Part shown: one piece after another, positions 6,354-43,498 of the stretch | How positions within the stretch are numbered: position 1 is the first letter of the stretch | Layout: every line of letters begins with the position of its first letter | Assembly: GCA_964486045.1 (NCBI GenBank) | Contig: CAZALK010000002.1 | Location: 192,001-256,000, forward strand | Direction: 5' to 3' | DNA length: 64,000 nt | From: an uncultured archaeon | GTDB taxonomy: Archaea > Asgardarchaeota > Lokiarchaeia > Sigyniarchaeales > SOKP01 | Position numbers and translations under genes: made by a program | The notes under the pieces: generated by a model | Databases searched by the model: none | What the model saw: the letters and a program-made list of their open reading frames with translations, nothing else | Told to the model about the DNA's origin: nothing

Positions 6354-7811
6354 TTAACCTAAATATCTCCTCCGATTTGCTGCCATTAAAACTTTTGATG
6401 ATAAGTCTTCAATCTTATTGAGTCTCAATGAATCTATTATATAATCTGTAATATTTTTATGTTCTTCATCCATCTCACAGTCAATTGATAATTCTTTTAG
6501 TTTTGATTCTATTACTTTAGGTATAAAGCGTTGGTCGGGGTTATAAAATTTAAGAGCATCCTTGAGGTCTTCTTCAAAATTTATATATTGGGTAAGAATA
6601 AAATCATAATCTCTTTGAGTTAAAGCATTTAATCCAAGTAATGCTGGTGGTAATCCCATGGAACACAAAGATGCCGTAAAACCAATTGCTCTTGGTAAAC
6701 ATTGGTCTCCCATTGAACGGCAATAACCAAATAGCCCAATATGAAGTTTTCTCTTCCTTCGTTTAGGTATAAACTTAGAAACTTTATTAATTAATGGTGC
6801 TAATTCTAGTACTTGTTTCCCATATTCTTCAGCATACTTTTCAACAATTTCTAAACATCTTTCTTCTTCCATAAAATGAGGATTCCTTCTTGGTGTTTCG
6901 TTTATTTTATCAATTGCTTTGGAGACCATATTCGGAGGATAGTCATACTTAAACGCAGATTGAAGGGTAAATGTTTGGACACTCGGATATTCTTTTAAGA
7001 CCCTTTCTACTGTGTCTGGTCGTAAATTACCTCTAAAAGGGGCTGATCCAACACCAATTATTGGATATAAATCTATACTTAATTCTTCGGATAGTTGATT
7101 AATTCTTTGGTGAGCAATTTTATTTACCACAACAGCAGAAAGTAGTCCATAATTTAACGCCGGATCGGATCTTGCAAAGAAGATTCGTTGGTATTCAAGA
7201 TTTTTATCACTAAGATAAGCTTTCAGTAGTAAATGAGAGAAAAGTATATGATGTTTATCTTCTACAAGAGGAATTACATTTATTTTATGTGGTTTAAATT
7301 GCCCCACCCATTCTGAGATTAAAATATCTCCATCCATTGTTGGATATTTTTGTTTTCCAATCACAAATTTATGATAGTAATTGTATATTCTATCAAGTCC
7401 TTGTTCTGAGGTGGTCATCGGTAATATAACTTCAAAAATAGGAGCAATATCATCATTAAAATATAAATTCGCAGCATCAAATGATCGAGGAATACTTTCT
7501 AGAGTTTCGATTAGCACTTTAGCTTCCGCTTTTTCTTCTTCAGGATTAGGTACTCTTATGGTTAAAAAAATATCTTTACCCAAACGAGTTTCTTTAAAAA
7601 AATCCGGATATTTTGTTAAAAGTTTTTTAACTACAAATCCATCAACCTCCTTACCTTCAGCATCCCACATTTGCTCATCACACCCAAGATGTGAATAAGC
7701 ATAAAAGGCTTCCTGGATTTCATCATCACCACCAAGATCGGAAGATTCCGCAAAAAAAGGTAAATGCACATTATCAGGATGCTGAGTACTCATACATCTA
7801 GGTATTTTCAA
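6354..7811 (-). CDS. ppcA: Archaeal-type phosphoenolpyruvate carboxylase
   Basis: IPRCMSTQHPDN, MWDAEGK, FEVILPMT, ARSDPALNYG, GVGSAPFRG, LPRAIGF. Confidence 0.95.
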   Translation of the reverse strand: MKIPRCMSTQHPDNVHLPFFAESSDLGGDDEIQEAFYAYSHLGCDEQMWDAEGKEVDGFVVKKLLTKYPDFFKETRLGKDIFLTIRVPNPEEEKAEAKVLIETLESIPRSFDAANLYFNDDIAPIFEVILPMTTSEQGLDRIYNYYHKFVIGKQKYPTMDGDILISEWVGQFKPHKINVIPLVEDKHHILFSHLLLKAYLSDKNLEYQRIFFARSDPALNYGLLSAVVVNKIAHQRINQLSEELSIDLYPIIGVGSAPFRGNLRPDTVERVLKEYPSVQTFTLQSAFKYDYPPNMVSKAIDKINETPRRNPHFMEEERCLEIVEKYAEEYGKQVLELAPLINKVSKFIPKRRKRKLHIGLFGYCRSMGDQCLPRAIGFTASLCSMGLPPALLGLNALTQRDYDFILTQYINFEEDLKDALKFYNPDQRFIPKVIESKLKELSIDCEMDEEHKNITDYIIDSLRLNKIEDLSSKVLMAANRRRYLG

Positions 7812-9546: not shown

Positions 9547-12231
9547 TTAATTTTTCACTTTTAGCATGTTTCTTAGAACAGTGTGCAAAATTCCCCCATT
9601 TTGATAATATTCAATATCTATAGGAGTGTCTAATCTTGCAATTACTTTAAATTTTAAATCCTCCCCATTGAGTCTTCTTGCAATTACATTTAATTCCGAT
9701 AAGGGTTCAATATCCTTGATTCCAAAGATACTAATGGTTTCTTCTCCTGTTAATTCTAGGCTATTTGCACTTTCACCATTTTTAAATTGAAGTGGTAAAA
9801 CCCCCATTCCAACTAGATTACTTCTATGAATTCTTTCAAATGATTCGGCAATTACTGCTTTTACTCCTAACAGTTGCGTACCTTTTGCGGCCCAATCACG
9901 TGAGCTCCCCATACCGTAATCTTTACCTGCAATAACAATTAAGGGAGTGTCAGAATTTATATACTTCATAGCTGCATCATAAATAGGCATTATTTCCTTT
10001 CTGGGATGATAAATTGTCCAACCTCCTTCTCTATTAACAAGAAGATTTTTAATTCGGATGTTACCAAATGTCCCACGCGTCATAACTTCATCATTTCCTC
10101 TTCTTGATCCAAATGAGTTGAAATCTTCAACATTTATTCCCTTTGATTTTAGATATTTTCCCGCAGGCATATCTACAGGGATTGCACCAGCGGGTGAAAT
10201 ATGATCTGTGGTGACACTCCCTCCCAAGAGTGCAATTACTCGCGCTGCTTTTATATCTGGAGACGATGGTCTTTCTAAAGGAAAATCTATAAAGAAGGGT
10301 GGTTCTTTTATATAGGTTGAATCTTCTTCCCATAGGTATACATCTTCTTTTGGAGGTTTTAGTTCATTCCATAAGTCCCAACCTTTAAAGATCTCACCAT
10401 ACTCTTTATTAAATAATTTAGCAGTGACAAATTTATCACTCAAATCTGTAATTTCACTTGAGTGTGGCCAAATATCTTTTAAATAAACAGGGTTTCCCCT
10501 CGGATCATTTCCTAATGGTTCATTTTCCATGTTTATTGCTACAGTACCTGCTAAAGCAAACGCTACAACTAAAGGTGGGGATGCAAGATAATTTATTCTT
10601 GTGTATGGACTAATTCTTCCTTCGAAGTTTCGATTTCCGCTTAGAACTGATGCTACTACCAAATTTTTATCCTGAATTTCATTAATTAATTCAGTTTTTA
10701 ATGGACCGCTATTTCCAATACAGGTTGTACAACCAAAACCTACTAAGTTGAAACCTAATTCTTCTAAAAAATGTAATAATCCAGCATCTTTTAAATAATC
10801 AATTACAACTCGGGATCCAGGAGCAAAACTAGTTTTAACAAAACTTTTAACTTTTAAGCCTTTTTCTAAGGCATTTCTTGCTAGAAGTGCAGCCCCGATC
10901 ATTACAGCTGGGTTCGACGTGTTAGTGCAAGAAGTAATAGCGGCAATGACAACTGAGCTATGACTTAAGTTATTCCCATCTGATATTTTTTCAAGTTCAT
11001 TACTCTTATTAAGTGTATTCTTCATATGCTCTGTAAAGTTTGTCTTCATCTTATTTGCTGGAATACGATCTTGAGGACGTGTTGGACCTGCTAAACTTGG
11101 TTCAATATTACTTAGGTTTATCTCTAAATTTTCACTAAAATTTGGTGGGGGAGCACTATCTGTATAAAACATTCCTACTCTCTTTGCATATTGCTCAACA
11201 AAATCAATATTATCTTTTTTTCTCCCACTATTTCTTAAATAATTCAAGGTTTCTTCTGTGATGGGAAAATATCCCATTGTTGCACCATATTCGGGAGACA
11301 TATTTGCAATGGTTGCTCGATCTGCAAGGCTTAATTTTTTTAGTCCTGAACCATAAAATTCGACAAATTTCCCAACTACACCAAATTTTCTAAGAATTTG
11401 AGTAATAGTTAATACAATATCTGTAGCGGTTATTCCTTCTTTGACATCCCCTATTAACTTAACCCCAACAACTTTAGGAACATTCATATATATGGGTTGC
11501 CCTAAAATGACCGCTTCGGCCTCTATCCCCCCGACACCCCAGCCAAAAACTGACAACCCATTTATCATCGTTGTATGGGAATCAGTTCCAACTAAAGTAT
11601 CTGGGTATCCGATTAGACCATTATTTTCTTCTTTTAAATGAATGACAGATGCTAAATATTCTAAGTTAACTTGATGACATATTCCTCTACTCGTAGGTAC
11701 AACCCTGAAATTTTTATAAACAGATTGTGCCCATTTAAGAAATTTATAGCGTTCATGATTACGTTCCATTTCCACTTTTTCATTCAAATCTCTCGCATCA
11801 TTTGATCCATAATAATCAACTTGAACTGAATGATCAATAACCAAGTCTACTGGTATTTTAGGATTTATATCTGAAGGATTTCCACCTGCCCTCTTTATGG
11901 CTGATCTCAGAGCAGCTAGATCTACAACTGAAGGAACTCCTGTAAAGTCTTGTAATAATACTCTTGATGGAATATAGGGTACCTCACTTATTAAATCACT
12001 TTTAGAGTCCCATTGACATACCATAAGTAAGTGATCCATCGTAACACGCTTACCATCTAGATTTCTTAAAAGATTTTCAAGTAATATTCTATGGGAATAT
12101 GGTAATTTGTTTGGATCACCTAATTTTAAATCCTTTAATTTTTGAATATTATAAATCAAAACATCTCCTACTTTGGATTTAATAGTATCCTTAACCTTTG
12201 ATTTAATTTCTTGCTCATCCATTATTCTCAC
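9547..12231 (-). CDS. acnA: Aconitate hydratase A (IRP/AcnA type)
   Basis: LLQDFTGVP, DHSVQVD, GICHQVNLE, GTDSHT, AITSCTNTSNP, GCTTCIGNSG, TTDHISPAG, GSSRDWAAKG. Start may be ATG 12222. Confidence 0.95.
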   Translation of the reverse strand: MRIMDEQEIKSKVKDTIKSKVGDVLIYNIQKLKDLKLGDPNKLPYSHRILLENLLRNLDGKRVTMDHLLMVCQWDSKSDLISEVPYIPSRVLLQDFTGVPSVVDLAALRSAIKRAGGNPSDINPKIPVDLVIDHSVQVDYYGSNDARDLNEKVEMERNHERYKFLKWAQSVYKNFRVVPTSRGICHQVNLEYLASVIHLKEENNGLIGYPDTLVGTDSHTTMINGLSVFGWGVGGIEAEAVILGQPIYMNVPKVVGVKLIGDVKEGITATDIVLTITQILRKFGVVGKFVEFYGSGLKKLSLADRATIANMSPEYGATMGYFPITEETLNYLRNSGRKKDNIDFVEQYAKRVGMFYTDSAPPPNFSENLEINLSNIEPSLAGPTRPQDRIPANKMKTNFTEHMKNTLNKSNELEKISDGNNLSHSSVVIAAITSCTNTSNPAVMIGAALLARNALEKGLKVKSFVKTSFAPGSRVVIDYLKDAGLLHFLEELGFNLVGFGCTTCIGNSGPLKTELINEIQDKNLVVASVLSGNRNFEGRISPYTRINYLASPPLVVAFALAGTVAINMENEPLGNDPRGNPVYLKDIWPHSSEITDLSDKFVTAKLFNKEYGEIFKGWDLWNELKPPKEDVYLWEEDSTYIKEPPFFIDFPLERPSSPDIKAARVIALLGGSVTTDHISPAGAIPVDMPAGKYLKSKGINVEDFNSFGSRRGNDEVMTRGTFGNIRIKNLLVNREGGWTIYHPRKEIMPIYDAAMKYINSDTPLIVIAGKDYGMGSSRDWAAKGTQLLGVKAVIAESFERIHRSNLVGMGVLPLQFKNGESANSLELTGEETISIFGIKDIEPLSELNVIARRLNGEDLKFKVIARLDTPIDIEYYQNGGILHTVLRNMLKVKN

Positions 12232-12246
12232 AATGTAATCTAAATA

Positions 12247-13491
12247 CTATCTTTTATCAATGTTTTCATACTTCTTATCTAATTCACCCACGTATCTAAG
12301 GCGTGGCCTTATGAGTTTATTATCCGAAAGTTGCTCGAGGGCATGAGCAACCCAGCCAGCACTGCGAGAAGCAGCAAATAATGGGGTAAAAGATGCTGTA
12401 GGTATACCTAATGCATGTAATGCTCCAGCAGAATATAAGTCTACATTAGGATAAATATTTTTGGTTTTTATCATAAATTCGGTAAGGGTTTCAGTCATCT
12501 CATAAATATTATCAATTTCCCCTTTATGAGTTTCATGCTCTGGATCAGGAATCTTTTCTATAATATCAGGATCACTCCATAAATTTTTAGATATTTCGCG
12601 CAATATTCTTGCTCTGGGATCCCATGTTTTATAAACTCGATGACCAAATCCCATGATTCTTTCCTTCTTCTCAAGCTTGTTTTTAGCCCAAGGTATAACT
12701 TTATCCTTTTTCTTTATTTCTCCTAACATAAGATTTATTACTCTTTCATTAGCACCACCATGGAGTGGCCCTCGAAGGGTACCGATAGCACTGGTGATTC
12801 CGCTATATATGTCTGATAATGTAGAAACGGTAACTCGACAAGAAAAAGTACTACTATTTATTGAGTGATCCATATGACAGATTAAAATCTTATCAAAATA
12901 TTCTTCAAATTCCTTGTTCGGGATTTTTCCTGTCATCATATAATAGTAATTACAAGAGTGTGAAAGATCTTCAGAGGGTTCAATTAAAGGTAAATTGCCT
13001 TGAATTCTATGTGAGAATGCTAAAACCGTAGGGATTTTTGCTATAATTCTTATTCCTTTTCTTATATTGGCTTCTTTAGAGAAATCGTAATCATCTGGAT
13101 CATATAGAGACAAAGCAGAAATTGATGTTCTTAATAATTCTATCCTTGTTGTATTTCTAGGAAAACTCTTTAATATTGTAACAATATTGTCTGGAAGTTT
13201 TCGCTCTTTAATTAATACATCTGTGAATGTCTTAAATTCTGATTTTGTCGGAAGTTTTCCATAGATTAATAAATAGGCAACTTCTTCAAAGGATGAATGT
13301 TCGACTAAATCTTTTAAAGGAAAACCTCGATAATAAAGTTTTCCATTCATACCATCTATGTATGTTATAAAGCTTTCATCTACATATATCCCTACTAAAC
13401 CTTTATAAGTTTTTGAACTATCAAGATCGCATAATTTTGCGTCTCCACCCGAATCATAATCATCTTTAATAAAACGCTTATCTCCTTTCAT
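12247..13491 (-). CDS. gltA: Citrate synthase (2-methylcitrate synthase not excluded)
   Basis: GKLYYRG, GPLHGGAN, MGFGHRVYK, DPRA, YPNVD. Lies 15 nt upstream of acnA on the same strand. Confidence 0.9.
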   Translation of the reverse strand: MKGDKRFIKDDYDSGGDAKLCDLDSSKTYKGLVGIYVDESFITYIDGMNGKLYYRGFPLKDLVEHSSFEEVAYLLIYGKLPTKSEFKTFTDVLIKERKLPDNIVTILKSFPRNTTRIELLRTSISALSLYDPDDYDFSKEANIRKGIRIIAKIPTVLAFSHRIQGNLPLIEPSEDLSHSCNYYYMMTGKIPNKEFEEYFDKILICHMDHSINSSTFSCRVTVSTLSDIYSGITSAIGTLRGPLHGGANERVINLMLGEIKKKDKVIPWAKNKLEKKERIMGFGHRVYKTWDPRARILREISKNLWSDPDIIEKIPDPEHETHKGEIDNIYEMTETLTEFMIKTKNIYPNVDLYSAGALHALGIPTASFTPLFAASRSAGWVAHALEQLSDNKLIRPRLRYVGELDKKYENIDKR

Positions 13492-13649: not shown

Positions 13650-14165
13650 ATGACCGAACTACACATTTCAACTACAAATAAAGGATTACCACTCGGAACT
13701 AAAGCACCTATGATTGACGAAGAAGATATTGATGGAGATAACGTGAATTTAACTAAATTGTTGGAAAAACACAATGGAGTTTTAATCGATCTATTTAGAG
13801 GAAGTTGGTGAATTCATTGCAGAAAACACCTCACATATTTAAATGAAAATTTATCAATACTAGAAAAACATAATATTAAGTTAATAGCTATCGCAATAGA
13901 TCTTCCTGATAAATTAATAAAAATGAAGTATAAAAACAACTTTAAGATACAGTTTATTACTGATCGCGCCGGAAGAATTAGTAAGGCATATAATGTTTTC
14001 TTAGATAGAAAGAGTGCTGTCCATGATGGATTGCAAATAAGCCATGCGATACCCTCGAAGTTTCTTGTCAATAGAGAAGGAAACATCGTTTGGGAATATA
14101 TCGGAGCAAAAACAGATAGACCATCAATCGAATTAATTGAAGATGCAATTATAAAATATCTATAA
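13650..14165 (+). CDS. Peroxiredoxin-like (AhpC/TSA, thioredoxin fold) selenoprotein, Sec at codon 54
   Basis: ATG 13650 is in frame with TGA 13809-13811 and with the track ORF at 13923. Reads GLPLGTKAP...LFRGSW-U-IHC...ITDRAGRISKAYNV...AIPSKFLVNREGNIVW, i.e. U-x-x-C at the CxxC site. SECIS-like hairpin follows. Confidence 0.92.
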
Positions 14166-14593: not shown

Positions 14594-15649
14594 TTAAACG
14601 AGGATATCGGAACTTATATCTTGTAATGTTTTACAATTTACCATCTTCATAGCTTTCTGAAGGGTTTTCTGCATATATTCCATATGAAGCTGTACTCCTT
14701 TAATACCTGCTCCAACAGAAGCTCGAATAATGTCACGTCCGATCAGAACAGAATCAGCTCCAAGTGCCAGCATTTTTAATACATCATAACCATTACGAAT
14801 TCCACCATCAACCATAATTTTAATCTTACCCTTCAATTCTGCAACAATCTGAGGTAAAATTTCTGCAGTTCCAGGAGTATAATCTAAGACTCTTCCACCA
14901 TGATTGGAAACAACAATAGCTGATACTCCAGCTTCCATAGCTTTAAAGGCATCCTCAATACACATTACTCCTTTTATTACAATCGGAAGTTTTGTCGAAG
15001 AAACTAATTCTTTGATATCATCAATAGATTTTTTAAACACAGGTTTATTATGAGTAGCCATTGCATATGATCCACAGCCATCTATATCTATACCAACAGC
15101 AATACATCCAGTGGTTTCTGCCTTTTCAAAAAACTTAATTATTGTTTCTTGTCCTCTAGGTTTTACAATTTTTACCCCATGTCCATCAGCTTCAGCAATA
15201 GCATTAATACCATATGTATTTTCAAGGGAATAAGTATAAGTATCTCCTCTCCATCCTATTGATCCCGCATCCTTACATCCCTGAACAACGGCAGAACAAA
15301 AGTCTTGTTCAGTAATAACTTCATCACCCCCAAAACTATTAACTCCTGCAACACTAGCACCCATTATTGGCATTGTTAATTCTTTTCCAAAAAAGTTATG
15401 GCGTGTATCAACAGTAAAATCTTCTTCCATTAATTTCATTTTTAATTTATATTTTCTAAGTGCTAAAAAATTGTTGTTAAAACTAGCTCCACTTCCAATT
15501 CCTCCAATACCAAGAGCTCTCCCATAACTCTGCCCTTGACAGAGTCTACGAGGGTCTCCATCGCAATCTTTGTAGACTCCACATATCCCTTTTAACTTGT
15601 CTCTCGCAATTTTCCTAACATCTTCTAGTGTTTTAATTTCAGGCGTTAT
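14594..15649 (-). CDS. FMN-dependent alpha-hydroxy-acid dehydrogenase with Cys-containing N-terminus; probable ATA start
   Basis: LPIVIKGV, IVVSNHGGR, DGGIRNG, LIGR. The frame extends 70 codons upstream of the track ATG (ITPEIKTLEDVRKIARDKLKGICGVYKDCDG...LCQG) to ATA 15649 behind GAGGTG. Confidence 0.88.
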   Translation of the reverse strand: MTPEIKTLEDVRKIARDKLKGICGVYKDCDGDPRRLCQGQSYGRALGIGGIGSGASFNNNFLALRKYKLKMKLMEEDFTVDTRHNFFGKELTMPIMGASVAGVNSFGGDEVITEQDFCSAVVQGCKDAGSIGWRGDTYTYSLENTYGINAIAEADGHGVKIVKPRGQETIIKFFEKAETTGCIAVGIDIDGCGSYAMATHNKPVFKKSIDDIKELVSSTKLPIVIKGVMCIEDAFKAMEAGVSAIVVSNHGGRVLDYTPGTAEILPQIVAELKGKIKIMVDGGIRNGYDVLKMLALGADSVLIGRDIIRASVGAGIKGVQLHMEYMQKTLQKAMKMVNCKTLQDISSDILV

Positions 15650-15665
15650 ACGTTCACCTCAAAAA

Positions 15666-17057
15666 TTACACCATTTTTTTAGGATCTAATAACTCATCTA
15701 AATTATCTATTTTCAAACCCATTTCTGTAATTACTTTTTTACATGTTTTTCCTTCTTTATATGCTCTTTGTGCAATCTCTGAACATTTATCGTACCCAAT
15801 TATAGGTGCGAGATTTGTTATTGTCATGAGCATTTCTTCTAGTTGATTATTTATTTGTTCTTCATTTGCTTTTAAATCTATTAAGCAATTATCAATAAAT
15901 GAATTGATCCCTCCCATAAGAATATCAAATGATTCAAGTAAATTTACAATCATTACAGGTTTACATACATTTAAATCTAAAATACTTCCATATGCTTCCC
16001 CAAAAGAAATAATATAATCATTTCCTAAAACCTGAAGACATACTTGGATTAATGCTTCAGATTGAGTCGGGTTTACCTTTCCAGGCATGATAGAGGAACC
16101 AGGCTCATTTTGAGGTAAAATTAGCTCTGCTAATCCTGCTCGTGGTCCACTACCCATCCAACGAATATCGTTTGCCATTTTTAAAAGAGACAAAGATAGC
16201 AATCGTAAATTACCACTAACATTAACAATAGTGTTATGTGAAGCAATTCCTTCCGCTTTTACAAGATTAATCTTAAATGGTATATTCGTTAATTTTGAAA
16301 GATGAGTAACGGTAAGTCTAGCAAAATCTTCATGAGCATTTAACCCTGTTCCCAATGCTGTCCCCCCTATTGGAATATGATATAATTCATTACAAACATC
16401 TCGTATTCTTTCTATGCTAGTTTCGATTTGTTTTTTATACACTTCAAATTCTAGAGATAAAGGTATTGGAACAGCATCTTGTAGGTGTGTTCTCCCTACT
16501 TTAACAATATCTTTATATTCTTTAATTTTAGTGTCCAAGGATTCTACAAGTTTTTTTAATGTTGGAAGGAGTTGTTGAATCATATGTAATGTGGATATAT
16601 GCATAGCACTAGGAATAACATCGTTCGACGATTGACTTTTATTTACATGATCATTTGGATGCACAGGGTGTTTTTTTCCCATAGGAAATCCAAGTACTTG
16701 ATTTGCTCGATTTGCCAGAACTTCGTTTATGTTCATATTCGTCTGAGTTCCACTACCGGTTTGAAAAATATCAATAGGAAATTGATCATAATACTTATCC
16801 TCCTCTAAAATTTCGTTTACTGCCTTTAGTATAGCATCTCCTTTCTCTTTATCGACTATATCTAAATCCATATTAGCTAAAAGGCACGCTTTTTTTAATT
16901 CCGCCAAAGAAGTAATGAAAATCTGAGGAAATTTGACTCCACTTATCTGGAAATTTTGAATTGCTCTTTGTGTGTTTATTCCCCAGAATACATCTTTTGG
17001 GACCTCAATTTCACCTAAAACGTCTTTTTCGATACGAAAATTCATAATTAATTTCAC
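15666..17057 (-). CDS. fumC: Class II fumarate hydratase
   Basis: FQTGSGTQTNMN, HPNDHVN, SQSSND, GRTHLQDA, GSSIMPGKVNP. Start probably ATG 17045. Confidence 0.92.
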   Translation of the reverse strand: MKLIMNFRIEKDVLGEIEVPKDVFWGINTQRAIQNFQISGVKFPQIFITSLAELKKACLLANMDLDIVDKEKGDAILKAVNEILEEDKYYDQFPIDIFQTGSGTQTNMNINEVLANRANQVLGFPMGKKHPVHPNDHVNKSQSSNDVIPSAMHISTLHMIQQLLPTLKKLVESLDTKIKEYKDIVKVGRTHLQDAVPIPLSLEFEVYKKQIETSIERIRDVCNELYHIPIGGTALGTGLNAHEDFARLTVTHLSKLTNIPFKINLVKAEGIASHNTIVNVSGNLRLLSLSLLKMANDIRWMGSGPRAGLAELILPQNEPGSSIMPGKVNPTQSEALIQVCLQVLGNDYIISFGEAYGSILDLNVCKPVMIVNLLESFDILMGGINSFIDNCLIDLKANEEQINNQLEEMLMTITNLAPIIGYDKCSEIAQRAYKEGKTCKKVITEMGLKIDNLDELLDPKKMV

Positions 17058-21103: not shown

Positions 21104-22894
21104 TTGGTGAAGATTTTGGTAAGATTTAGATGCTCGGTTTGTAATTTCATTTATGATGAGGGTAAAGAGGGGGGAAATTTTTCTGCATTATCTGACTCTT
21201 GGACATGTCCTGTGTGTGGTGCCCCAAAAAGTGCTTTTATTACAGAAGGAGTTAGTAAAGGTGATAATACCATAGCTACTAATGTTGCAGAAAAAATTAT
21301 TGAACAATTGGTTGCTTTTGGAGTTAAGCATGTTTTTGGAATTCCTGGAGATTCTAATCTCCCTTTAGTCAATGCAATTCGTGAAAACGATAAGATTGAT
21401 TTTATTTTAACTAGGCATGAAGAAACAGCTGCTTTCATAGCTTCTGCTCACGGAAAAATTACCGGTAAGTTAGGCGTTTGTATGTCGATTGCAGGACCTG
21501 GAGCTACTAACTTAATTACAGGATTAATGGACTCTGCAACTGATAGAAGCCCCGTTTTGGCACTTGTAGGTCAAATTCCTGAAGTTTACTTAGGTAGTGA
21601 AGCATTCCAGGAAATAGACCAAATTACATTATTTCAACCTTTTGCAGAATACGCTGAAACGATTGCAAGATCGAGTCAGGCAATTAAACTTACAATGATG
21701 GCCGCAAAATATGCTCTTAAGAAACCAGGAGTAGCTGTTTTAAGTTGTCCCACAGATGTTCTTGTTGAAAAATTAGATGATAATATAATCCGTCCAGAGA
21801 AACGATTGTTTAAAAGTGAGGTTACATCAACTAATGAAGAACTACAAAAAGCAGCAGATCTTATCAATAAGTGCACTAGACCAGTAGTATTCGGGGGTTG
21901 GGGATCAAGGTATGCTGGAGAACTACTGATCGAACTCTCAGAGCGATTGAAAGCTCCAATTGCCACAACATCACGAGTTAAAGGTATTGTTCATGAAACA
22001 CATAAATATGCAGTGGGGGTATTAGGTTCAATAGGAACAAAATATTCAGCGATGGCTATTCGAGGGTGTGATTTAATAATAATAATTGGCTCAGGTTTTA
22101 GGCAAGCAAATCTCGTGCCTCCAAACGTAAAAATAATACAAATAGATAATGATACAACTCGAATAGGTAAGACTTTTGATGTTGATATTGGGTTAGTAGG
22201 TGATGGTCGACTTGTTCTTCAAAAGTTAATACCTTTAGTGGAAGGTAAACAAGAAGATAATGATTTTTTATCTCATGTTTTTAAAATGAAACAAGAACAT
22301 ATGGCTGAACTAGAAATAGAAGCAAAAGATTTATCAGTTCCTATCAACCCTGGTTATGTTATTCAATCTATGAGGAGAACTTTAGAAAAGGATGCAATAA
22401 TATGTGTGGATGTGGGAGATCATACCTATCATTTCTACAAAAAATTTATCTGTGAAGGGCATAAAACTTATTTAAATGCAAATATGGCAAGTATGGGATT
22501 TGCTTTACCAGCTTCTATCGCAGCTAAGCTAGAGTTTCCTGAAAAGCAGGTTATATGTCTTGCTAGCGACGGTGGTTTTGCTATGTTGATGGCAGATTTT
22601 ACTACAGCAGTACGAGAGAAATTGAACATAGTCGCTATTATCTTTCATGATTGTGTTTTGAAAAATATTAAGAAGGAACTAATAAGAGACGGTTATCCCG
22701 TATTTGGTGTTGAGTTTCCTAATCCTAACTTTGCTGAGTTTGCTACATCAAGCGGAGGTTTTGGTGTAAGGGTTGAATCTCCCGAGCAATTAGATGATGC
22801 TTTACAAGAAGCTTTAAATTCGGGCAAACCTTCTATAGTTGAAGTAATGACAGATCCTGACAAAATGGCTGCTTCAACTAAGAAAGTAGAATAG
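21104..22894 (+). CDS. Rubredoxin fused to a ThDP-dependent pyruvate oxidase/acetolactate-synthase family enzyme
   Basis: CSVCNFIYD...[10 protein letters not shown]; [44 protein letters not shown]. Confidence 0.9.
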
Positions 22895-28379: not shown

Positions 28380-29459
28380 TTATTGTACATACTTTATAGC
28401 CGTTTTTAATGATTTTTCTGCATCTTTAATTATAGTTTCTATAATATCGGGGACCGATTCAACTTTGTTTATAATTCCTATGCTTTGTCCGATCAAAACG
28501 CCACCATTCTCCATATCTCCTCGATAAGCTGCAAAGGCTGCCTTTGCATCTTTCCTTAATTCTTCATCTAGTTTTTCCTTTGTAATTGCGGCTCGGTGGT
28601 CTTCCAGAGCCTTTTCTTCTGCCATTTTTTCTTCTTTAGTTGTTACTAATCCCTTTGATAAAGAAAATTTGTTTTTCCAATATCTAATGGTTCCAAGCAC
28701 CCCTGTTTTTATGACAGTATCTTGAGATTTAGCAGCTGGTATAATATTTTTGTAATTTTCATGAAATTCGCTATCTTTGGAGGCTATAAATCTTGATCCC
28801 ATAGCAATTGCTCCCGCACCAAGAGATAAAGCCGCGGCCAACCCTGCTCCAGTTGCATATCCACCACATGCAATTTTTGGGATATCAGGATGTTTTTGCT
28901 GCATTTGTTGCAATAATACCATACCTCCAACTTTTTCATAAGATTGGTGCCCTCCGCCTTCGAATCCTGTTACCACGAGACCATCACACCCCGATGCGAC
29001 ACATTTATCAGCTAACCAAAGTGCAGGAGCAACATGAAAGTGTTTAATCTCTGTTTGTTCCCTTAGTTTTTGAAAATCCTTATTTTGGGGAAATTTTGCT
29101 GAGGAACCCGCACTAGAAAGAGCATATAAACACTGTTCTCTCAATTTAGGATTAGCCATAATATGTTTTGCAGCTCCACTTATAATCGTGTCACAACCTA
29201 CTACATTCCTCGAAGTTATAATGTTAAATCCAAAAATTCCAGTAGTATGCTCTACAACATAATCGAGATTTTTCTTCAGGGCTACTAAGTTATTTTTTTC
29301 ATAACCATCCATAGATACCGTTGAAAAGGATATCGTACCAAGCCCACCTGCGTTTGCAACTGCTGTGGCTAATTCTGTAGTTCTAAAAGGTCCCATAGGT
29401 GCATTTACGATTGGAACCTTGGTTCCAAACATCTCGGTAATATTTGTTTTAATTGTCAA
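28380..29459 (-). CDS. Nitronate monooxygenase / FabK-like flavoprotein
   Basis: PIVNAPMG, AVANAGGLG, GFEGGGH, IACGG, MGSRF, GQSIG. TTG start with AGGTGA SD. Confidence 0.88.
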   Translation of the reverse strand: MTIKTNITEMFGTKVPIVNAPMGPFRTTELATAVANAGGLGTISFSTVSMDGYEKNNLVALKKNLDYVVEHTTGIFGFNIITSRNVVGCDTIISGAAKHIMANPKLREQCLYALSSAGSSAKFPQNKDFQKLREQTEIKHFHVAPALWLADKCVASGCDGLVVTGFEGGGHQSYEKVGGMVLLQQMQQKHPDIPKIACGGYATGAGLAAALSLGAGAIAMGSRFIASKDSEFHENYKNIIPAAKSQDTVIKTGVLGTIRYWKNKFSLSKGLVTTKEEKMAEEKALEDHRAAITKEKLDEELRKDAKAAFAAYRGDMENGGVLIGQSIGIINKVESVPDIIETIIKDAEKSLKTAIKYVQ

Positions 29460-30498: not shown

Positions 30499-31260
30499 TT
30501 AATCGCTGCTATAATTATCTCTGATGTCTTTTATGGCAGTTCCAGGCATAACACCTTTCGGACAAACTCTATTACAGACAAAAAACTTCTCACATGCTGG
30601 GACTCCATTATCTCGTAAGACTCTGGATAAAATTAATTCCCCTTTTTTACTTGTTAGCCTAGAATCTCTTATGAATCTATCAGCTTTAGCTAGCTGTGCT
30701 GGTCCAAGGTAATTGACCTTGTTCTTACTAACTGGACAAGCCCAACATAACCCACATAAAATACAATATACTAGTCTTTCAATAATTTTCATCTGTTTTG
30801 GAGATTGTGAAGATTCTGGAGCTTTATCATTCCAATCTCTTGTGAAAAATGGTTCGACTTCCTTATAAAAATTCCAGAAAGGCGCCATGTCAACAACCAA
30901 ATCTTTTAAAACTGTCATATTAGGTAACGGTTCAATTAAAATTTCATTTTCAGGATCCCATTCTGATTGATCACCAAATTTAAATTCTGGTAAATTAGTA
31001 GGCTTTTTACTCGATTTTACTGTTGAAATTTGTGTCCTGCAAGCTAATAAAGGGATTTTATCAATAATCATTCCACACGAACCACATATGGCTCCTCGAC
31101 AAGCATAACGAAATGCAAAAGTTGAATCATAATAATCTTGTATATAGAAAAGTGCATCTAATATACTTGCTCCTTCTAAAACTGGAACTTCAAATCGTTC
31201 ATAATGATTATTTCCGTCTCCAGAATTCCTATAAACCAGAAATTTATTTTTTTTTTCCAT
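30499..31260 (-). CDS. sdhB: Succinate dehydrogenase/fumarate reductase Fe-S subunit
   Basis: CRGAICGSC, LAC, IEPL, DLVVD, CILCGLCxxCP, CxxxxxCxxxCP. Confidence 0.92.
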   Translation of the reverse strand: MEKKNKFLVYRNSGDGNNHYERFEVPVLEGASILDALFYIQDYYDSTFAFRYACRGAICGSCGMIIDKIPLLACRTQISTVKSSKKPTNLPEFKFGDQSEWDPENEILIEPLPNMTVLKDLVVDMAPFWNFYKEVEPFFTRDWNDKAPESSQSPKQMKIIERLVYCILCGLCWACPVSKNKVNYLGPAQLAKADRFIRDSRLTSKKGELILSRVLRDNGVPACEKFFVCNRVCPKGVMPGTAIKDIRDNYSSD

Positions 31261-32972
31261 TAGTATTTCCTCTCTTTCACTTCAAATATTCCTAATTTAA
31301 CTGATTTGGTTTTAATCTCTAAACCACCTATTCCTCGATAAACCATTGAATGCTTAAGAAAATCATCATCATTGCGAGTAGGATAATCTGTTCGGAAATG
31401 AGCACCTCTACTCTCATTTCTCCATAAAGATGTCAGCGCGGTTGCTTCTGCAATATCTAACATACTTCGAAGCTCTAAAGTGCGTATTAATCCATAATTA
31501 AATCTTCGATCTTCAGTAGACACTTGTGTTTTTAAGAAGTCTTTTTGTAATCTCGGAAGTAAATTACATGCTTTTTCAAGATCCTCTTTATTTCTATAGA
31601 CACCTACATTCAAATTCAGGGTTTCTCCCATCTCATCTCTAATTTTTACCGGTTTTTTCCCTGAATTCTCGTTCCAATTCTTAAATAAGTTCTCGATTTT
31701 GTCTAAAGTGGCAGCCTCAACTGCTTTAATATCACTTAAAGATGATTTCTTAGGTAATCCTTTATTAAGCAATTTTCTTCCCAAATATCTGCCAAATACA
31801 GCAGTCTCTAATAAAGAATTGCCTCCTAATCTATTAGCACCATGAACTGATAAACAAGAGCATTCACCAATTGTATAAAGTCCGGATACGTCTGTTTCTC
31901 CATAATCTCCATTAAACCTTGTAGCAATTCCCCCCATTGAATAATGTTGTCCTGCTTGAACTGGAATTGGGACTTCTATTGGGTCAACACCTGCAAAATA
32001 TATACTTATATCTCTAATGCCTGGTAATCTTTCTTTAATCCGGTTAGCACCTAGATGAGTGAGATCTAAATGGACATAAGCATTCTTAAATCCTCTTCCC
32101 TCAAGAACTTCTGTCTCTATTGATCTGGCCACGATATCACGTGGAGCTAGCTCCATAGCTTTTGGGGCAGTTTTTTCCATAAAACGTTCACCTTTAGAAT
32201 TAAATAAATACCCCCCTTCACCTCGAGCACCCTCAGTAATGAGTATATTGGTACCGAATAGCGTAGTTGGGTGAAATTGAACAAATTCTACATCCTGCAT
32301 TGGGACACCAATTCTAAAAGCTGCCCCCACTCCATCACCAGTATTAATAACAGCATTAGTTGAGCGTTTAAAAATACGACCAAAACCCCCTGTAGCTAAA
32401 ATAATATATGGTGCGCGAAATGAAACAAGTTCACCTTTTTTAATATCAAGGGTAATCAATCCTGCAATCCTACCATCTGTTTTATAAAGATCTACTAAAA
32501 AATATTCATCAAAGAAAGTCACACCATTTCGAACAGATTGTTCATTGAGAGTATGAAGTAACGCATGACCCGTTCTATCACCAGCATAACAAGTACGAGG
32601 AAATCCAGCACCACCGAAAGGACGTTGTGCTATTAAACCAGATTCTAATCTTGAAAAAGGAGCACCCATACTCTCAAATTCGACAACAATCTTAGGTGCT
32701 TCTTCACACATGAACAATACAACATCCTGATCTGCAAGATAATCAGAGCCTTTTACTGTGTCAAATGCATGTTCTTTGGGAGTGTCGTCTTTCCCTTCTT
32801 CTAGATTACCTAGGGCGGCATTGATCCCTCCTTGCGCAGCTCCGGAATGGCTGCGAACAGGAAAAACTTTACTAATAACCGCAATATTCCATTTAGTTGA
32901 TAATTCTAATGCTGCCCTTAAGCCGCTAAGTCCCGCTCCAACAACTAAAACGTCAAATTCTTCGGTTTTCAT
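31260..32972 (-). CDS. sdhA: Succinate dehydrogenase/fumarate reductase flavoprotein
   Basis: [52 protein letters not shown]. Confidence 0.95.
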
Positions 32973-34119: not shown

Positions 34120-34992
34120 TTATCGAAAAGCATTTAATAAATCATTAAATTTATCTTTATCTAAATCTCTCTGGTATAAAGGTCTCTTATCATTATCATA
34201 AATGCGAACATTTTCTTCATAGGATTTACGGTTAGGATTAATATAAAGTACACCCAACGCAAATCTTTTTGTATCCAAGGCTAACTTCATAGCAGATTCT
34301 TGATTATAAGGATTATGTGAATCATCTATGTAATAACTATTAGATTTGTACCACTGGAATGTATTTACTCTATTAAAAGTCACGCATGGGCAAAGTAAGT
34401 CTATTAATGCATAACCTTTATGACTTATTGCTTTTATCAAAATCTCTTTTGTTTTTTCTATATCTCCAACAAAAGACCTGGCCACAAATGACGCATTTAA
34501 AGCAATCGCAACTGCAACCGCATTAAAGGGCTCATTTATAACTCCAAATACTTGAACTTTTGTCTTAAATCCTAATTGACTGGTTGGAGATGCTTGACCT
34601 TTTGTTAAGCCAAAGATCATATTGTTATGCACAAGATTTACAATATCAGGATTATATCGAATGGTGTGTAAAAAATGATTACCCCCTTCACTAAGCGTGC
34701 ATCCATCGCCACTAACGGCAATAACATGGAGTTCCGGATTAGCTGCTTTTATCCCAAGTGCCACTGATAAATACCTTCCATGGAGTCCATTGAAACTTTG
34801 CGATTTCATAAAATGAGGAAATTTTCCTGCCTGACCGATCCCTGATACTAATACAAGATCTTTAGGTTTAATACCTAATTCTGTCAGAGTTTCTTTCATT
34901 ACTTTCATAGCACTAAAATTCCCACATCCGGGACACCAGTGAATTTCAGTATCTAAATCAAATTCAGTTTTTGAAATCTTAATCACCATCAA
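34120..34992 (-). CDS. korB: 2-oxoacid:ferredoxin oxidoreductase beta subunit
   Basis: WCPGCGN, SGIGQ, LHGR, GDG, [15 protein letters not shown], PCVTFN. Substrate not determinable. Confidence 0.9.
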
Positions 34993-36691
34993 TTATTTTT
35001 TTTAATCTATCAACAATTTCTTCTACAGAAAACACGTATCCACTGTATTTTAAAATCCTATGATTCATATTAATATGTGTTTCATTCTCTAAAAGTTTTG
35101 CGAACTGTCCTGTAGGATTTTGTTCGATCGAAATTTTAATTTCTGCTTTGATAAGATAATCACGCACAATTTCATGAACAGGGTATATTTGCTTAAAAAA
35201 TAAAAAACTAATGTCATCTCTATTTAATCTTTCTAAAGCTTCCTTGATTAAATAATAATTACTCCCCCAACTGACTATCAAATATTTAAAATCTTCATTT
35301 CCATAAAATTCTGGTGGAATTGTCTCCTTTTTAATCAGTTCCAACTTTTTGAACCGCTTGCTGACAGTTTTATTTCTTAAAGCTGGATCTTCTGTAATTA
35401 TTCCATATTCATCGTGAGTATGACTGTCCGCATCAACTAACCCCTCACCATATCCAGGGATACCGCGAGGAGAAATACCAGTATTTGTAAAACGATATCT
35501 TTCATAGTTTTCATCAGTTTTTATAATATTTTTTAGAATTTCTAAGGAATCAAGATCTAATGAGTGAATATTATAGTATGAATCTACCAGATATTGATCA
35601 GTAAGAATAAATACAGGCACATGAAATTTTTGAGTAAGGTTAAACGCATTTTGAGTCAATTTAAATGCGTCTTCGATAGTCCCGGGGGAAAAAATTATTC
35701 TTGGAAACCAGCCTGCACCAGCATGTAAGACAAGTTCAATATCCTCTTGGCATGTTCTTGTTGGCATTCCTGTCGCAGGACCTGGTCGTTGACCTACAAC
35801 AATTACTATTGGTAATTCAGTCATGCCCGCAAGACTCACTCCCTCTGTCATAAGGGAAAAACCTCCACCAGATGTAGATACAAATGATCGAGCACCTGCA
35901 TAAGATGCACCTAGGGTTTTATTTATAGCGCTTATCTCATCCTCAGTTTGATCTACAATCATCCCAAATTCAAGAGCATGTTGAGCCAAAAATGTACCAA
36001 TGCCCGTAGAAGGTGCCATAGGATAAAAACAAGCAAAATTACACCCTCCAGCAATGGCTCCTAATGCAATGGCTTGAGTCCCATCTAGTATATAATCATC
36101 TATTAACTCAGGATTTTTCTTTATTTCAAATTTTTGATTAATTTGGTTGGAATTTATTAAGTCTTTAATTACATCATAACCCTTATCTGCGGCTTTAATG
36201 TTATTATTTATAATTTCTTGTCCTTTTGTTTTGAAATTTTCTTTTAGCAACTCATAAAGAATAGTTCTTTCAGCTTTCAACATACATAGAATTACACCTA
36301 ATGCTATGATATTGGCGTAAATCTTTCCGCCAACTGTATTTGAGAGCTCAGTAAAAGGGATTTCTACAGTGTTAGTTTCAATATCAGGGATAGTCTCAAT
36401 AAAATGTTTTTCACCAATGATTAAGGTCTTGGAAGATATCCTTTCTTTCAAATAAGGTAAAGCCTCCTCGTTTAGCGGAACTAGTAAATCAATTTGATCA
36501 AGATAAGCACGAACTGGTTTAGAAGATACTCGGATAGCTGTAGAATTAACACCTCCTCTAACTCTTGACATGTACTCTCTTGTTGCGAATACATGATAAC
36601 CGGTTTTTTTTAATGTTTTTGTTAATAATGCTTCAACAGTTTGGATCCCTTGACCTGCAGCACCACAGAGAACTATTGAAATACCATTCAT
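34979..36691 (-). CDS. korA: 2-oxoacid:ferredoxin oxidoreductase alpha subunit (fused gamma)
   Basis: [45 protein letters not shown]. Confidence 0.9.
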
Positions 36692-41517: not shown

Positions 41518-42636
41518 TTGCTAGAATATGAGTGTAAAAGGATTTTCAATAGATTTGATATTCCATTAGCAAAAAATATAATCATTGAAAAAAGTGAAAA
41601 TATTGAACAAAAAGTTGATCAATTTACATTTCCTGCAATAGTTAAGTCTCAAATTGCGATTGGCAGTAGAAAAAAAGCGGGATTGATAAAAATTGCTAAT
41701 TCTAAGGAGGAAGCTATAAATCTCTGCAAAGAATTCTTTAGTAGAGTAGTTGCTGGATTCACAGTAGAAGCAATACTTATTGAAGAATTAATTCAAATTG
41801 AACATGAATATTATTGCTCAATTGCTTTAGACGCATCGGGACGCCAATTTTTTATTATTGCTAGCACAAAAGGAGGTATTGACATTGAAGAAGTATCCAA
41901 AAATAATCCTGAGGCAATATTAAAAGAGAAATTTAGATACAATGAAGGTTTAAGCGAAAATATTGCTAATGAAATTTCTGAACAGTTAGGATTTAAAGGA
42001 GAGCTCAAAGATTCAGTTATAGATTTATTTCATAAATTATGGAAAATTACAAAGGATCTTGAAGCCCAATTAGTAGAAATAAATCCCTTAGTTCTTACCC
42101 CTTCTGGATTAGTAGCTGTTGATGGTAAAATGATATTAGATGATGATACAGTATTTCGACAACCGATTGTCCAAGAATTACAAAACAAAAAGCTTTCACA
42201 ATTAGAAAAATTAGCAAAAGACGCGGGGTTTTCATTTGTAGAACTTGAAGGTGAAATTGGTATTTTGGCAAACGGTGCTGGCCTAACGATGGCATTATTA
42301 GATGTCTTGTCTGAATTAGGTTTAAAACCGGCAAATTTTTTAGATGTAGGAGGTGGAGCAAGTAAAGAACGAGTGTATAGTGCATTGGAATTGTTATTCA
42401 AAATGAATCCTAAGTCTGTACTGGTGAATATTTATGGCGGTATTACTCGTTGCGATGTTGTAGCTGAAGCAATAATTCAAGCCTTAGAAGATTTTAAAGA
42501 TACACCTCCTATGGTAATAAGACTAACAGGTACTAACGATAAGGAGGGAATTGCTCTACTTAATAATGCGGGAATTACAGCTTATCAAGATGTAATGGAT
42601 GCTGTCCATAAAGTTAAAGAGGTAATTGAGGGTTAA
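41518..42636 (+). CDS. sucC: Succinyl-CoA synthetase beta subunit
   Basis: LEYECK, KSQ, GGIDIE, EINPL, NGAGLTM, PANFLDVGGGA, NIYGGITRCD, RLTGTN. Confidence 0.92.
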   Translation: MLEYECKRIFNRFDIPLAKNIIIEKSENIEQKVDQFTFPAIVKSQIAIGSRKKAGLIKIANSKEEAINLCKEFFSRVVAGFTVEAILIEELIQIEHEYYCSIALDASGRQFFIIASTKGGIDIEEVSKNNPEAILKEKFRYNEGLSENIANEISEQLGFKGELKDSVIDLFHKLWKITKDLEAQLVEINPLVLTPSGLVAVDGKMILDDDTVFRQPIVQELQNKKLSQLEKLAKDAGFSFVELEGEIGILANGAGLTMALLDVLSELGLKPANFLDVGGGASKERVYSALELLFKMNPKSVLVNIYGGITRCDVVAEAIIQALEDFKDTPPMVIRLTGTNDKEGIALLNNAGITAYQDVMDAVHKVKEVIEG

Positions 42637-42637
42637 T

Positions 42638-43498
42638 ATGTATATTAATGAAAATTCCAAGGTACTAGTTCAAGGAATTACAGGAAGTCAAGGTAAGTTC
42701 CATACTCGATTAATGCTAGATTACGGGACTAATATAGTTGCAGGAGTGACTCCTAAGAAAGGAGGCCAGATGGTTCATGGGATCCCGGTATTTAATACTG
42801 TCGAAGGAGCAGAAAAAGAGGTAGGTTGTGATATAAGTATTATATTCGTTCCAGCACGTTTTACTTTTAATGCAGCTAGAGAAAGCTTAAATGCGGGAAT
42901 TAAAATGACATGTATAATAACAGAAAATGTTCCTGTTTTTGATATGATTCAGTTAATTGAGATAGCACAAGAGCGAAATCTACATATAGTAGGGCCAAAT
43001 TGCCCGGGTATGATGATTCCAGATAAGATAAAATTAGGGATAATGCCGGGGGATATGTGCAATTATGGAAATGTAGCAGTTATCTCAAAAAGTGGTACAT
43101 TATCCTATGAAATTACTAAAGCAATTGGGAATGCTGGAATTGGAGTATCCGCTTATATCGGAATTGGAGGAGATCCTGTACGAGGTACAACAATGCTAGA
43201 GGCCGTAGAATATTATTCAAATGATCCTGATACTAAATTAATTGTTTTAATTGGCGAAATTGGGAGCGATGAGGAAGAGAAAACTGCTGAATTTATTAAA
43301 CAACATACTGATAAACCAGTTGTGGCGTATATAGCTGGGAGAAGCGCTCCAGAAGGTAAACGAATGGGTCATGCGGGTGCAATTATTTCTGGTCATTTTG
43401 GAACTGCTCAAGGTAAAATAAGAGCGCTTACAGAAGCAGGAGCTACAATTGCAGAAACTCCTTGGGAAGTTCCTCAATTAATTAAACAAATTATGTAA
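42638..43498 (+). CDS. sucD: Succinyl-CoA synthetase alpha subunit
   Basis: VQGITG, GPNCPG, SKSGTLSYE, GIGGD, GEIG, RMGHAGA. Confidence 0.95.
   Translation: MYINENSKVLVQGITGSQGKFHTRLMLDYGTNIVAGVTPKKGGQMVHGIPVFNTVEGAEKEVGCDISIIFVPARFTFNAARESLNAGIKMTCIITENVPVFDMIQLIEIAQERNLHIVGPNCPGMMIPDKIKLGIMPGDMCNYGNVAVISKSGTLSYEITKAIGNAGIGVSAYIGIGGDPVRGTTMLEAVEYYSNDPDTKLIVLIGEIGSDEEEKTAEFIKQHTDKPVVAYIAGRSAPEGKRMGHAGAIISGHFGTAQGKIRALTEAGATIAETPWEVPQLIKQIM

Follow-up and report, generated by a model that had tools for sequence, protein, structure and literature searches.

The 64-kb window analysed here, the whole stretch 192001-256000 of contig C2 in a 5.18-Mb metagenome-assembled genome (MAG) from marine sediment (completeness 99%, contamination 7.8%), carries directly behind a class II fumarase gene (fumC) a gene of the flavin mononucleotide (FMN)-dependent 2-hydroxy-acid dehydrogenase family (FMN_dh, PF01070). 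We propose, as a reading just on the probable side, that its product would oxidise L-malate independently of NAD(P), as a soluble or peripheral L-malate:acceptor oxidoreductase in which an iron-sulfur (Fe-S) cluster relays the electrons coming from FMN. Profile scans of the window proteins, whose best matches are from Loki/Promethearchaeota, found a gene for every tricarboxylic acid (TCA) cycle step except malate/oxaloacetate, in agreement with the initial annotation, which had named this as the only step without a gene: phosphoenolpyruvate (PEP) carboxylase, aconitase, citrate synthase, fumarase, SdhAB, KorAB, SucCD, AclAB and isocitrate dehydrogenase (IDH) were all identified. That annotation had proposed an FMN-dependent, possibly Fe-S-linked malate dehydrogenase (MDH) closing the cycle. 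In favour of it are the conserved linkage to fumC, the TCA gene clusters, the lack of a lactate dehydrogenase (LDH)-like MDH, Mqo or malic enzyme, the retained catalytic residues and Cys motif, and fusions to rubredoxin; a gene of the Ldh_2 family on contig C9 and genus-mates with fumC but no FMN gene speak against it. The features at the centre of this reading are:

14594-15649, minus strand: FMN_dh-family gene, 351 codons from ATA, candidate FMN/Fe-S malate:acceptor oxidoreductase (PF01070, 214 bits)
14891-14908, minus strand: catalytic SNHGGR motif (His253 the base, Arg256), invariant in all alignments and aligned with SNHGAR of lactate and glycolate oxidases
15539-15583, minus strand: three-Cys motif C26-x5-C32-D-G-x5-C40, predicted Fe-S ligands, the Cys invariant in 53 clade members
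15647-15649, minus strand: probable ATA initiation codon (Met of homologues at the aligned position, no canonical start)
15650-15665, minus strand: 16-nt intergenic gap with a Shine-Dalgarno-like GAGGTGA at 15660-15654, read directly
15666-17057, minus strand: class II fumarase (fumC), P0001, 463 amino acids (Pfam Lyase_1 and FumaraseC_C)

A search of 1.8 billion representatives, combined with a scan of GTDB genomes, placed the FMN protein in a family of two sister groups, one with the motif C-x5-CDG-x5-C (3-Cys) and the other with a ferredoxin-like C-x2-C-x2-C-x4-C (4-Cys), which are split by a single branch in an IQ-TREE quick tree of 100 sequences (SH-aLRT 99). The groups are 40-45% identical, share the barrel and the catalytic set, and have their Cys motif at the same N-terminal place, but in the 3-Cys group Tyr29 replaces the second Cys and there is an insertion of seven residues. 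The 3-Cys group comprises an unfused subclade (Asgard archaea, Spirochaetota and Fibrobacterota) and two subclades with a fused rubredoxin (Rd) domain, one in Desulfobacteraceae and Myxococcota, the other in Methanobacteriaceae, other archaea and two Asgard families. That two subclades carry such fusions suggests that electrons leave the enzyme one at a time, and a free rubredoxin of 50 amino acids is encoded on contig C5 of the source genome. Members of the 4-Cys group, some of them fused to ATP-grasp or HAD domains, come from Clostridia, Desulfovibrionaceae, Nitrospirota and other lineages. As a separate observation, hundreds of proteins of about 750 amino acids (P0133, P0150, P0274-P0392) from Nitrospinota, Spirochaetota and others consist of a 4-Cys FMN_dh domain fused with an ATP-grasp/L-amino-acid-ligase module, and ATP-grasp is the extra domain in all 120 long relatives listed with an additional Pfam domain.

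The two groups also differ in their genomic context. The flanks of all loci were searched with the window's own TCA proteins, and among non-redundant loci a TCA gene lies within 3 kb in 41 of the 53 3-Cys loci versus 0 of the 47 4-Cys loci, whose contexts are heterogeneous. The neighbourhood expected of a TCA step was thus seen in the 3-Cys clade, whose genes lie inside TCA clusters across six or more groups of phylum rank; the 53 loci come from Asgard archaea and Methanobacteriaceae and, among bacteria, from Desulfobacteraceae, Fibrobacterota, Spirochaetota and Myxococcota. The nearest TCA neighbour in the 41 linked loci is most often fumC (23), followed by citrate synthase (10) and korB (5). 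In contigs labelled Promethearchaeota (Loki), Thor-, Heimdall- and Hermodarchaeota, fumC is followed by the FMN gene with 4-28 nt between them, the stop-to-stop frames of the two overlapping in several loci, and citrate synthase, aconitase, SucCD, SdhAB or AclA are encoded nearby; genomes representing species add six more from Asgard archaea in which the two genes are neighbours. Linkage to fumC is therefore conserved across Asgard lineages and is not a peculiarity of the source genome. In two MAGs (L037, L038) the order korA-korB-sdhA-sdhB-fumC-FMNdh-acn follows the order of the reactions. Other arrangements are Rd-FMNdh-korAB-fumC-sdhAB (G087), IDH-Rd-FMNdh (G114), sdhA-sdhB-fumC-Rd-FMNdh in 5/9 Methanobacteriaceae loci (the remainder being ordered differently or without a TCA neighbour), korAB-Rd-FMNdh not far from citrate synthase in Desulfobacteraceae (Desulfocicer), citrate synthase-FMNdh in Fibrobacterota, and divergent fumC and FMNdh in a Treponemataceae MAG; the contexts of the Rd-fused bacterial and archaeal relatives P0123, P0124 and P0126 are non-TCA or too short. 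Since the arrangements vary between lineages, the link between the FMN gene and the TCA genes has been kept or rebuilt repeatedly.

The same neighbourhoods bear on which substrate would be oxidised. Among the TCA intermediates, only L-malate is an (S)-2-hydroxy acid whose alcohol is secondary, the stereochemistry established for the family. The FMN protein could instead oxidise a different TCA-tied 2-hydroxy acid, L-2-hydroxyglutarate (to 2-oxoglutarate) being the main candidate, as a metabolite-repair or feeder enzyme. This would suit the loci of Hodarchaeota, family f22 and Desulfobacteraceae, where the nearest neighbour is korB/korA, whose product uses 2-oxoglutarate, and those in which isocitrate dehydrogenase is adjacent or near (G114, L042); L-2-hydroxyglutarate is also an (S)-2-hydroxy dicarboxylate, so that polar clade-specific residues fit it too. 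However, fumC and citrate synthase are the commonest nearest neighbours, a repair enzyme is not expected as a core gene of Desulfobacteraceae (49/61 genomes, see below), nor as one that makes up for missing MDHs of all types, and we regard this substrate as unlikely. One polar clade-specific residue is Ser197, six residues past Asp191, which is invariant in the 3-Cys clade and replaced by Leu in 81% of the 4-Cys clade; an invariant Ser fits a more polar substrate side chain, and Ser197 is a candidate contact for the second carboxylate of malate.

Oxygen or peroxide detoxification through rubredoxin-fed reductases could be the main task of a rubredoxin-linked 2-hydroxy-acid oxidase of this kind, given the rubredoxin fusions and a peroxiredoxin-like gene beside the FMN gene in the window (13650-14165), in L010/L011 and in L035. 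Yet the peroxiredoxin-like gene is encoded on the opposite strand and is missing from most loci, TCA genes are linked far more generally, and such a role is compatible with malate as the donor, so we consider it quite improbable as an alternative. The peroxiredoxin/redoxin-like gene (13650-14165, plus strand) is of interest on its own, as its 171 amino acids are obtained by reading through a TGA at 13809-13811, with GSW-U-IHC at the active-site position; it is likely a selenoprotein, and the same split AhpC-TSA pair (53 and ~105 amino acids) is called beside the FMN gene in L010 and L011.

The FMN protein itself belongs clearly to PF01070 (214.4 bits versus a cut-off of 24.9, in two stretches) and has homologues with 70-90% identity in Loki-, Thor-, Heimdall- and Hermodarchaeota. 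An AlphaFold2 (AF2) model, built on 20 sequences, is a TIM barrel (pLDDT 89, pTM 0.90) with TM-scores of 0.70-0.76 and identities of 21-29% to mandelate, glycolate and long-chain hydroxy-acid oxidases. Lys229 on strand 6, His253, Arg256 and Asp191, the partner of the His, are invariant in 100 sequences and match the corresponding residues of lactate and glycolate oxidase; invariance also extends to the FMN phosphate loops, and the N-terminal half is divergent. There, the N-terminal extension with three Cys (CGVYKDCDG...LC) described in the initial annotation was confirmed, with C26, C32 and C40 invariant, and the motif fits an Fe-S electron-transfer module. Model confidence is moderate to low at residues 21-55 and low in loop 41-55, which follows the Cys motif, as expected if the model is missing a cofactor. 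PDB comparisons gave no solved structure of the FMN_dh family with an Fe-S cluster.

A generic anaerobic L-lactate/glycolate:acceptor oxidoreductase, i.e., an Fe-S variant of LldD or glycolate oxidase placed among TCA genes only through co-regulation of carbon oxidation, has to be considered at this point, since L-lactate dehydrogenase/oxidase and glycolate oxidase head the named matches, a LUD/CCG lactate-utilisation gene neighbours one 4-Cys relative, a HAD phosphatase is joined to another relative, and the anticorrelation with Ldh_1_C described below could stem from LDH and not from MDH. Against this, the scores to the curated lactate enzymes are far under their NCBIfam cut-offs (LldD, 122.6 versus 550; L-lactate oxidase, 103.2 versus 645.5), loci of the 3-Cys clade but none of the 4-Cys clade are linked to TCA genes, and a position between fumarase and citrate synthase in cycle-ordered clusters would be hard to explain for a lactate enzyme. 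We consider this alternative unlikely. MftD (111.3 versus 470.9) and type 2 isopentenyl diphosphate isomerase (55.3 versus 281.3) also remain under their NCBIfam cut-offs, and an identity as type 2 isopentenyl diphosphate isomerase, as IMPDH-like or as FabK-like protein was ruled out by the scores. The source genome has about 15 further weak PF01070 matches, which are FabK/nitronate-monooxygenase-like barrels. They form, with a gene in the window (28380-29459, minus strand; TIGR03151, 149 bits, under cut-off), a large paralogous family of FMN barrels of about 350 amino acids, an expansion that is unusual.

The reading frame of the FMN gene required separate attention. It is open from 15658 to 14594 on the minus strand, closed upstream by a TGA at 15661-15659, and contains no ATG, GTG or TTG before 15439, i.e., over 70 codons of the N-terminal part (residue numbers such as C26, C32 and C40 refer to P0002, the frame translated from 15658). 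The ATA at 15649-15647 lies 16 nt past the fumC stop (TAA at 15668-15666) and 4 nt past GAGGTGA. As 12 homologues of 350-367 amino acids align over the frame's full length from this exact codon, with Met there in most, the N-terminal part is real coding sequence. The full-length gene is thus real and probably starts at a near-cognate codon, in line with the initial annotation, which had placed the start at this ATA and had also correctly noted the 16-nt distance to fumC with a Shine-Dalgarno motif in the gap; the two genes are probably co-transcribed or translationally coupled. GGTGA-type motifs also precede the FMN gene in relatives, and in a locus from another genus (L021, G141) an ATA is found at the same position, directly behind an in-frame TAA. 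An assembly error at the ATA was ruled out, the letters being identical in contigs of two samples (depths 275 and 78). In a further relative (L019, G077) the conserved N-terminus is also without an in-frame ATG, GTG or TTG, and most relatives have ATG or GTG. A strong GGTGA motif may thus allow translation to begin at near-cognate codons in these copies. The lack of a canonical start over 70 codons, together with the absence of the FMN gene from genus-mates, could also mean a decaying or N-terminally truncated copy in the source genome. This is very improbable, as the frame is intact, with 90% identity to the closest homologue and all invariant residues present, a strong Shine-Dalgarno-like motif precedes the ATA, and the same ATA recurs in a second genus and with identical letters in two samples.

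For the upstream gene, the NCBIfam scores are ambiguous, with 568 bits to TIGR00979 (fumC_II), under the cut-off of 664.75, and 511 bits to the aspartase subfamily PRK12273, just reaching the cut-off of 510. In the PDB ranking, the top 26 matches are all fumarases (448 bits to human FH and 437 to E. coli FumC) and aspartases rank lower (403 and 326 bits), and the motifs KSQSSND and GRTHxQDAVP are common to the protein and human FH. An aspartase identity was set aside on ranking and motifs despite the ambiguous scores, and the gene is treated here as a fumarase.

The distribution of other malate dehydrogenases was compared in the source genome, in Asgard archaea and in Desulfobacteraceae. A genome-wide profile search of the source genome recovered neither an LDH-like MDH (Ldh_1_C) nor Mqo nor a malic enzyme. 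The initial annotation had asked whether an NAD-dependent MDH or Mqo is encoded elsewhere, and for these profiles the outcome favours its reading; the premise that nothing else could perform the malate step was not right given the Ldh_2-family gene on C9 (see below). In Desulfobacteraceae, 61 sampled genomes were covered, of which 49 have the FMN gene, 10 have Ldh_2, 15 have Ldh_1_C and none has Mqo above the cut-off; in 33 of the 49 genomes with the FMN gene all three MDH types (LDH-like, type-2 and Mqo) are missing. Ldh_1_C is present in 7/12 genomes without the FMN gene versus 8/49 with it (two of these being fragments), as non-orthologous displacement would predict. Two isolates with the FMN gene (50-53% identity), Desulfobacter latus AcRS2 and Desulfocicer vacuolatum DSM 3385, show none of Ldh_1_C, Mqo and Ldh_2; both are members of a group that oxidises acetate via a modified citric acid cycle (PMC2702500).

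Several observations weigh against a malate dehydrogenase. The source genome carries a gene of the type-2 malate/L-lactate dehydrogenase family (Ldh_2, C9:157670-158701, 394 bits), whose best solved relatives were deposited as malate dehydrogenases and sulfolactate dehydrogenase and which scores 269 against the sulfolactate dehydrogenase equivalog (cut-off 500). Within sampled genomes of the same family, Ldh_2 occurs in 24/25 versus the FMN gene in 7/25. A complementary distribution, seen in Desulfobacteraceae, was not seen in Asgard archaea, where among 151 sampled genomes the FMN gene is present in 25, Ldh_1_C in 27 and both in 5 (5/25 with the FMN gene versus 22/126 without, hence no anticorrelation), and Ldh_2 is present in 69, including about 20 of the 25. 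The genus-mates G049 and G150 have fumC beside an M28 peptidase gene (preceded in G049 by an abhydrolase gene) with no FMN gene between, and since fumC is kept there without it, the FMN gene is dispensable in these genomes. For Desulfobacteraceae, the Fisher p value of 0.006 for Ldh_1_C against the FMN gene overstates the case, as related genomes are not independent; in addition, PF02866 cannot separate LDH from MDH, so the complementary pattern could reflect lactate metabolism instead, and both isolates have malic enzyme, which makes a bypass conceivable. No fusion of the clade with a TCA enzyme was found among 179 long relatives. At the level of residues, the substrate binders Tyr24, Tyr129 and Arg164 of glycolate oxidase have no clear equivalents in a profile alignment; compared with 5zbm, an invariant Lys166 lies near the position of Tyr129, no Arg is present at that of Arg164, and the region of Tyr24 corresponds to the low-confidence loop 41-55. 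Malate is, to our knowledge, poorly oxidised by the known members of the FMN_dh family, and we infer the substrate, cofactors and acceptor of the clade from gene context, distribution and sequence.

Some further observations concern these loci and genomes. A gene of about 660 amino acids with DUF4910/Peptidase_M28 is conserved on the downstream side of the fumC-FMNdh pair across several Asgard lineages (L014, L016, L017, L011 and L121), is absent from the cluster in the window, and remains beside fumC where the FMN gene is missing. The source genome (5.18 Mb, 7.8% contamination) is larger than those of four genus-mates (3.5-3.6 Mb), all of them without the FMN gene and two with a short aconitase arrangement instead; the excess could be either a large accessory complement of the lineage or the sign of a partly mixed bin.

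Taking the L-malate:acceptor oxidoreductase as the favoured reading, the candidate enzyme would perform the malate/oxaloacetate step of the window's TCA gene set, which is encoded as follows:

6354-7811, minus strand: archaeal-type PEP carboxylase, a source of oxaloacetate (PF14010, 612 bits; TIGR02751, 597 bits)
9547-12231, minus strand: aconitase AcnA (NF006757, 1347 bits)
12247-13491, minus strand: citrate synthase, consumer of oxaloacetate, downstream of the FMN gene (PF00285, 401 bits)
30499-31260, minus strand: sdhB (Pfam Fer2_3/Fer4_8)
31260-32972, minus strand: sdhA (Pfam FAD_binding_2/Succ_DH_flav_C)
34120-34992, minus strand: 2-oxoacid:ferredoxin oxidoreductase beta (Pfam TPP_enzyme_C/PFO_beta_C)
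34979-36691, minus strand: 2-oxoacid:ferredoxin oxidoreductase alpha (Pfam POR/POR_N)
41518-43498, plus strand: succinyl-CoA synthetase beta and alpha (Pfam ATP-grasp_2/Ligase_CoA; CoA_binding/Ligase_CoA)
53807-58214, plus strand: ATP-citrate lyase AclA and AclB, isocitrate dehydrogenase (Pfam Citrate_bind/Citrate_synth_N; Citrate_synt/Ligase_CoA; Iso_dh)

L-malate made by the fumarase would be oxidised at the FMN with His253 as the base, while Arg256 and Lys229 would hold the carboxylate and the charge of the flavin. The reduced flavin would then be re-oxidised one electron at a time via a [3Fe-4S] or [4Fe-4S] cluster on the three Cys, with the electrons leaving to rubredoxin, a ferredoxin or a membrane carrier, and the oxaloacetate would pass to the citrate synthase encoded 1.1 kb downstream. 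With an acceptor of higher potential, malate oxidation would be favourable, as it is with Mqo. The reverse direction may also be possible, in which oxaloacetate from PEP carboxylase would be reduced and feed a reductive branch. In the source genome, the FMN enzyme would probably work beside the NAD(P)H-dependent enzyme of the type-2 malate dehydrogenase family, a pairing that would parallel that of Mqo and Mdh in some bacteria. A protein possibly connected to this electron transfer is encoded at 21104-22894 (plus strand), where a thiamine-diphosphate enzyme of 596 amino acids (TPP_enzyme_N/M/C) has an N-terminal rubredoxin domain. Close homologues lie within the same TCA clusters of other Asgard contigs and, in a bacterial MAG (L057), immediately upstream of sdhA-sdhB-fumC-FMNdh; it may be a second rubredoxin-linked oxidoreductase of the same pathway.

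In comparison with characterised systems, the FMN protein shares with the (S)-2-hydroxy-acid oxidases of PF01070 (glycolate oxidase, L-lactate oxidase, LldD, flavocytochrome b2, mandelate oxidase) the TIM barrel, the catalytic Lys, the His/Arg of SNHGGR with its Asp partner, and the FMN-binding motifs DGG(I/V)R and GR, and like LldD and flavocytochrome b2 it probably passes electrons to a carrier and not to oxygen. It differs from them in its low identity, far under every curated subfamily cut-off, in the three-Cys module found in no solved member, in showing no clear counterpart of the Tyr24/Tyr129/Arg164 triad by alignment and in its TCA gene context. Mqo (PF06039, FAD) would resemble it in physiological role, as it oxidises the malate of the TCA cycle without NAD, in a thermodynamically favourable reaction and often beside an NAD-linked enzyme; its fold and cofactor are unrelated. 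The type-2 malate/L-lactate/sulfolactate dehydrogenases (PF02615; 1v9n, 3i0p, 2x06) are candidates for the same reaction, yet they are NAD(P)H-dependent, have an unrelated fold and, in the case of the C9 copy, are encoded outside the TCA cluster. A further lead is glutamate synthase, where an FMN-containing TIM barrel and a [3Fe-4S] cluster on three Cys carry electrons one by one from or to the flavin, with ferredoxin or a partner subunit at the other end. The FMN protein has a weak Pfam Glu_synthase match at 273-310, which covers the shared phosphate-binding loop only, and glutamate synthase differs in its imine reduction chemistry, in the Cys spacing and in the position of the cluster.

Neither Cys clade has a member in the PDB or in any paper found, and our literature search returned nothing relevant on FMN-, rubredoxin- or Fe-S-linked malate dehydrogenases or on MDH in Asgard archaea, in keeping with the initial annotation, which did not know of this activity as described. 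As far as found, the Cys module, the rubredoxin linkage and the role as TCA malate dehydrogenase are undescribed, and fold and chemistry are those of a known superfamily. An NAD(P)-independent, membrane-associated malate dehydrogenase was reportedly described in Desulfobacter postgatei in the 1980s; papers citing Brandis-Heep 1983 make no mention of it, and it serves here only as a lead.

Malate dehydrogenase is among the most thoroughly studied of central-metabolic enzymes, and its textbook forms are either NAD(P)-linked (LDH-like and type-2) or FAD/quinone-linked (Mqo). The chances seem to us even that the 3-Cys clade is a third, unrecognised class, FMN/Fe-S-dependent and linked to rubredoxin or a different carrier, which serves the malate/oxaloacetate step of TCA cycles or branches in Asgard archaea, Methanobacteriaceae, Fibrobacterota, some spirochaetes and most Desulfobacteraceae, and that it also lies behind the unconfirmed D. 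postgatei activity. If so, a function would be defined for a large clade annotated only as 'alpha-hydroxy-acid oxidizing protein', and the energetics of the step would change, as no NADH would be formed and electrons would leave at higher potential or, in the reductive direction, enter from low-potential carriers. The gap at the malate step would be filled in acetate-oxidising sulfate reducers and some methanogens, as well as in the reconstructed metabolism of Asgard archaea, which matters for models of how eukaryotes arose.

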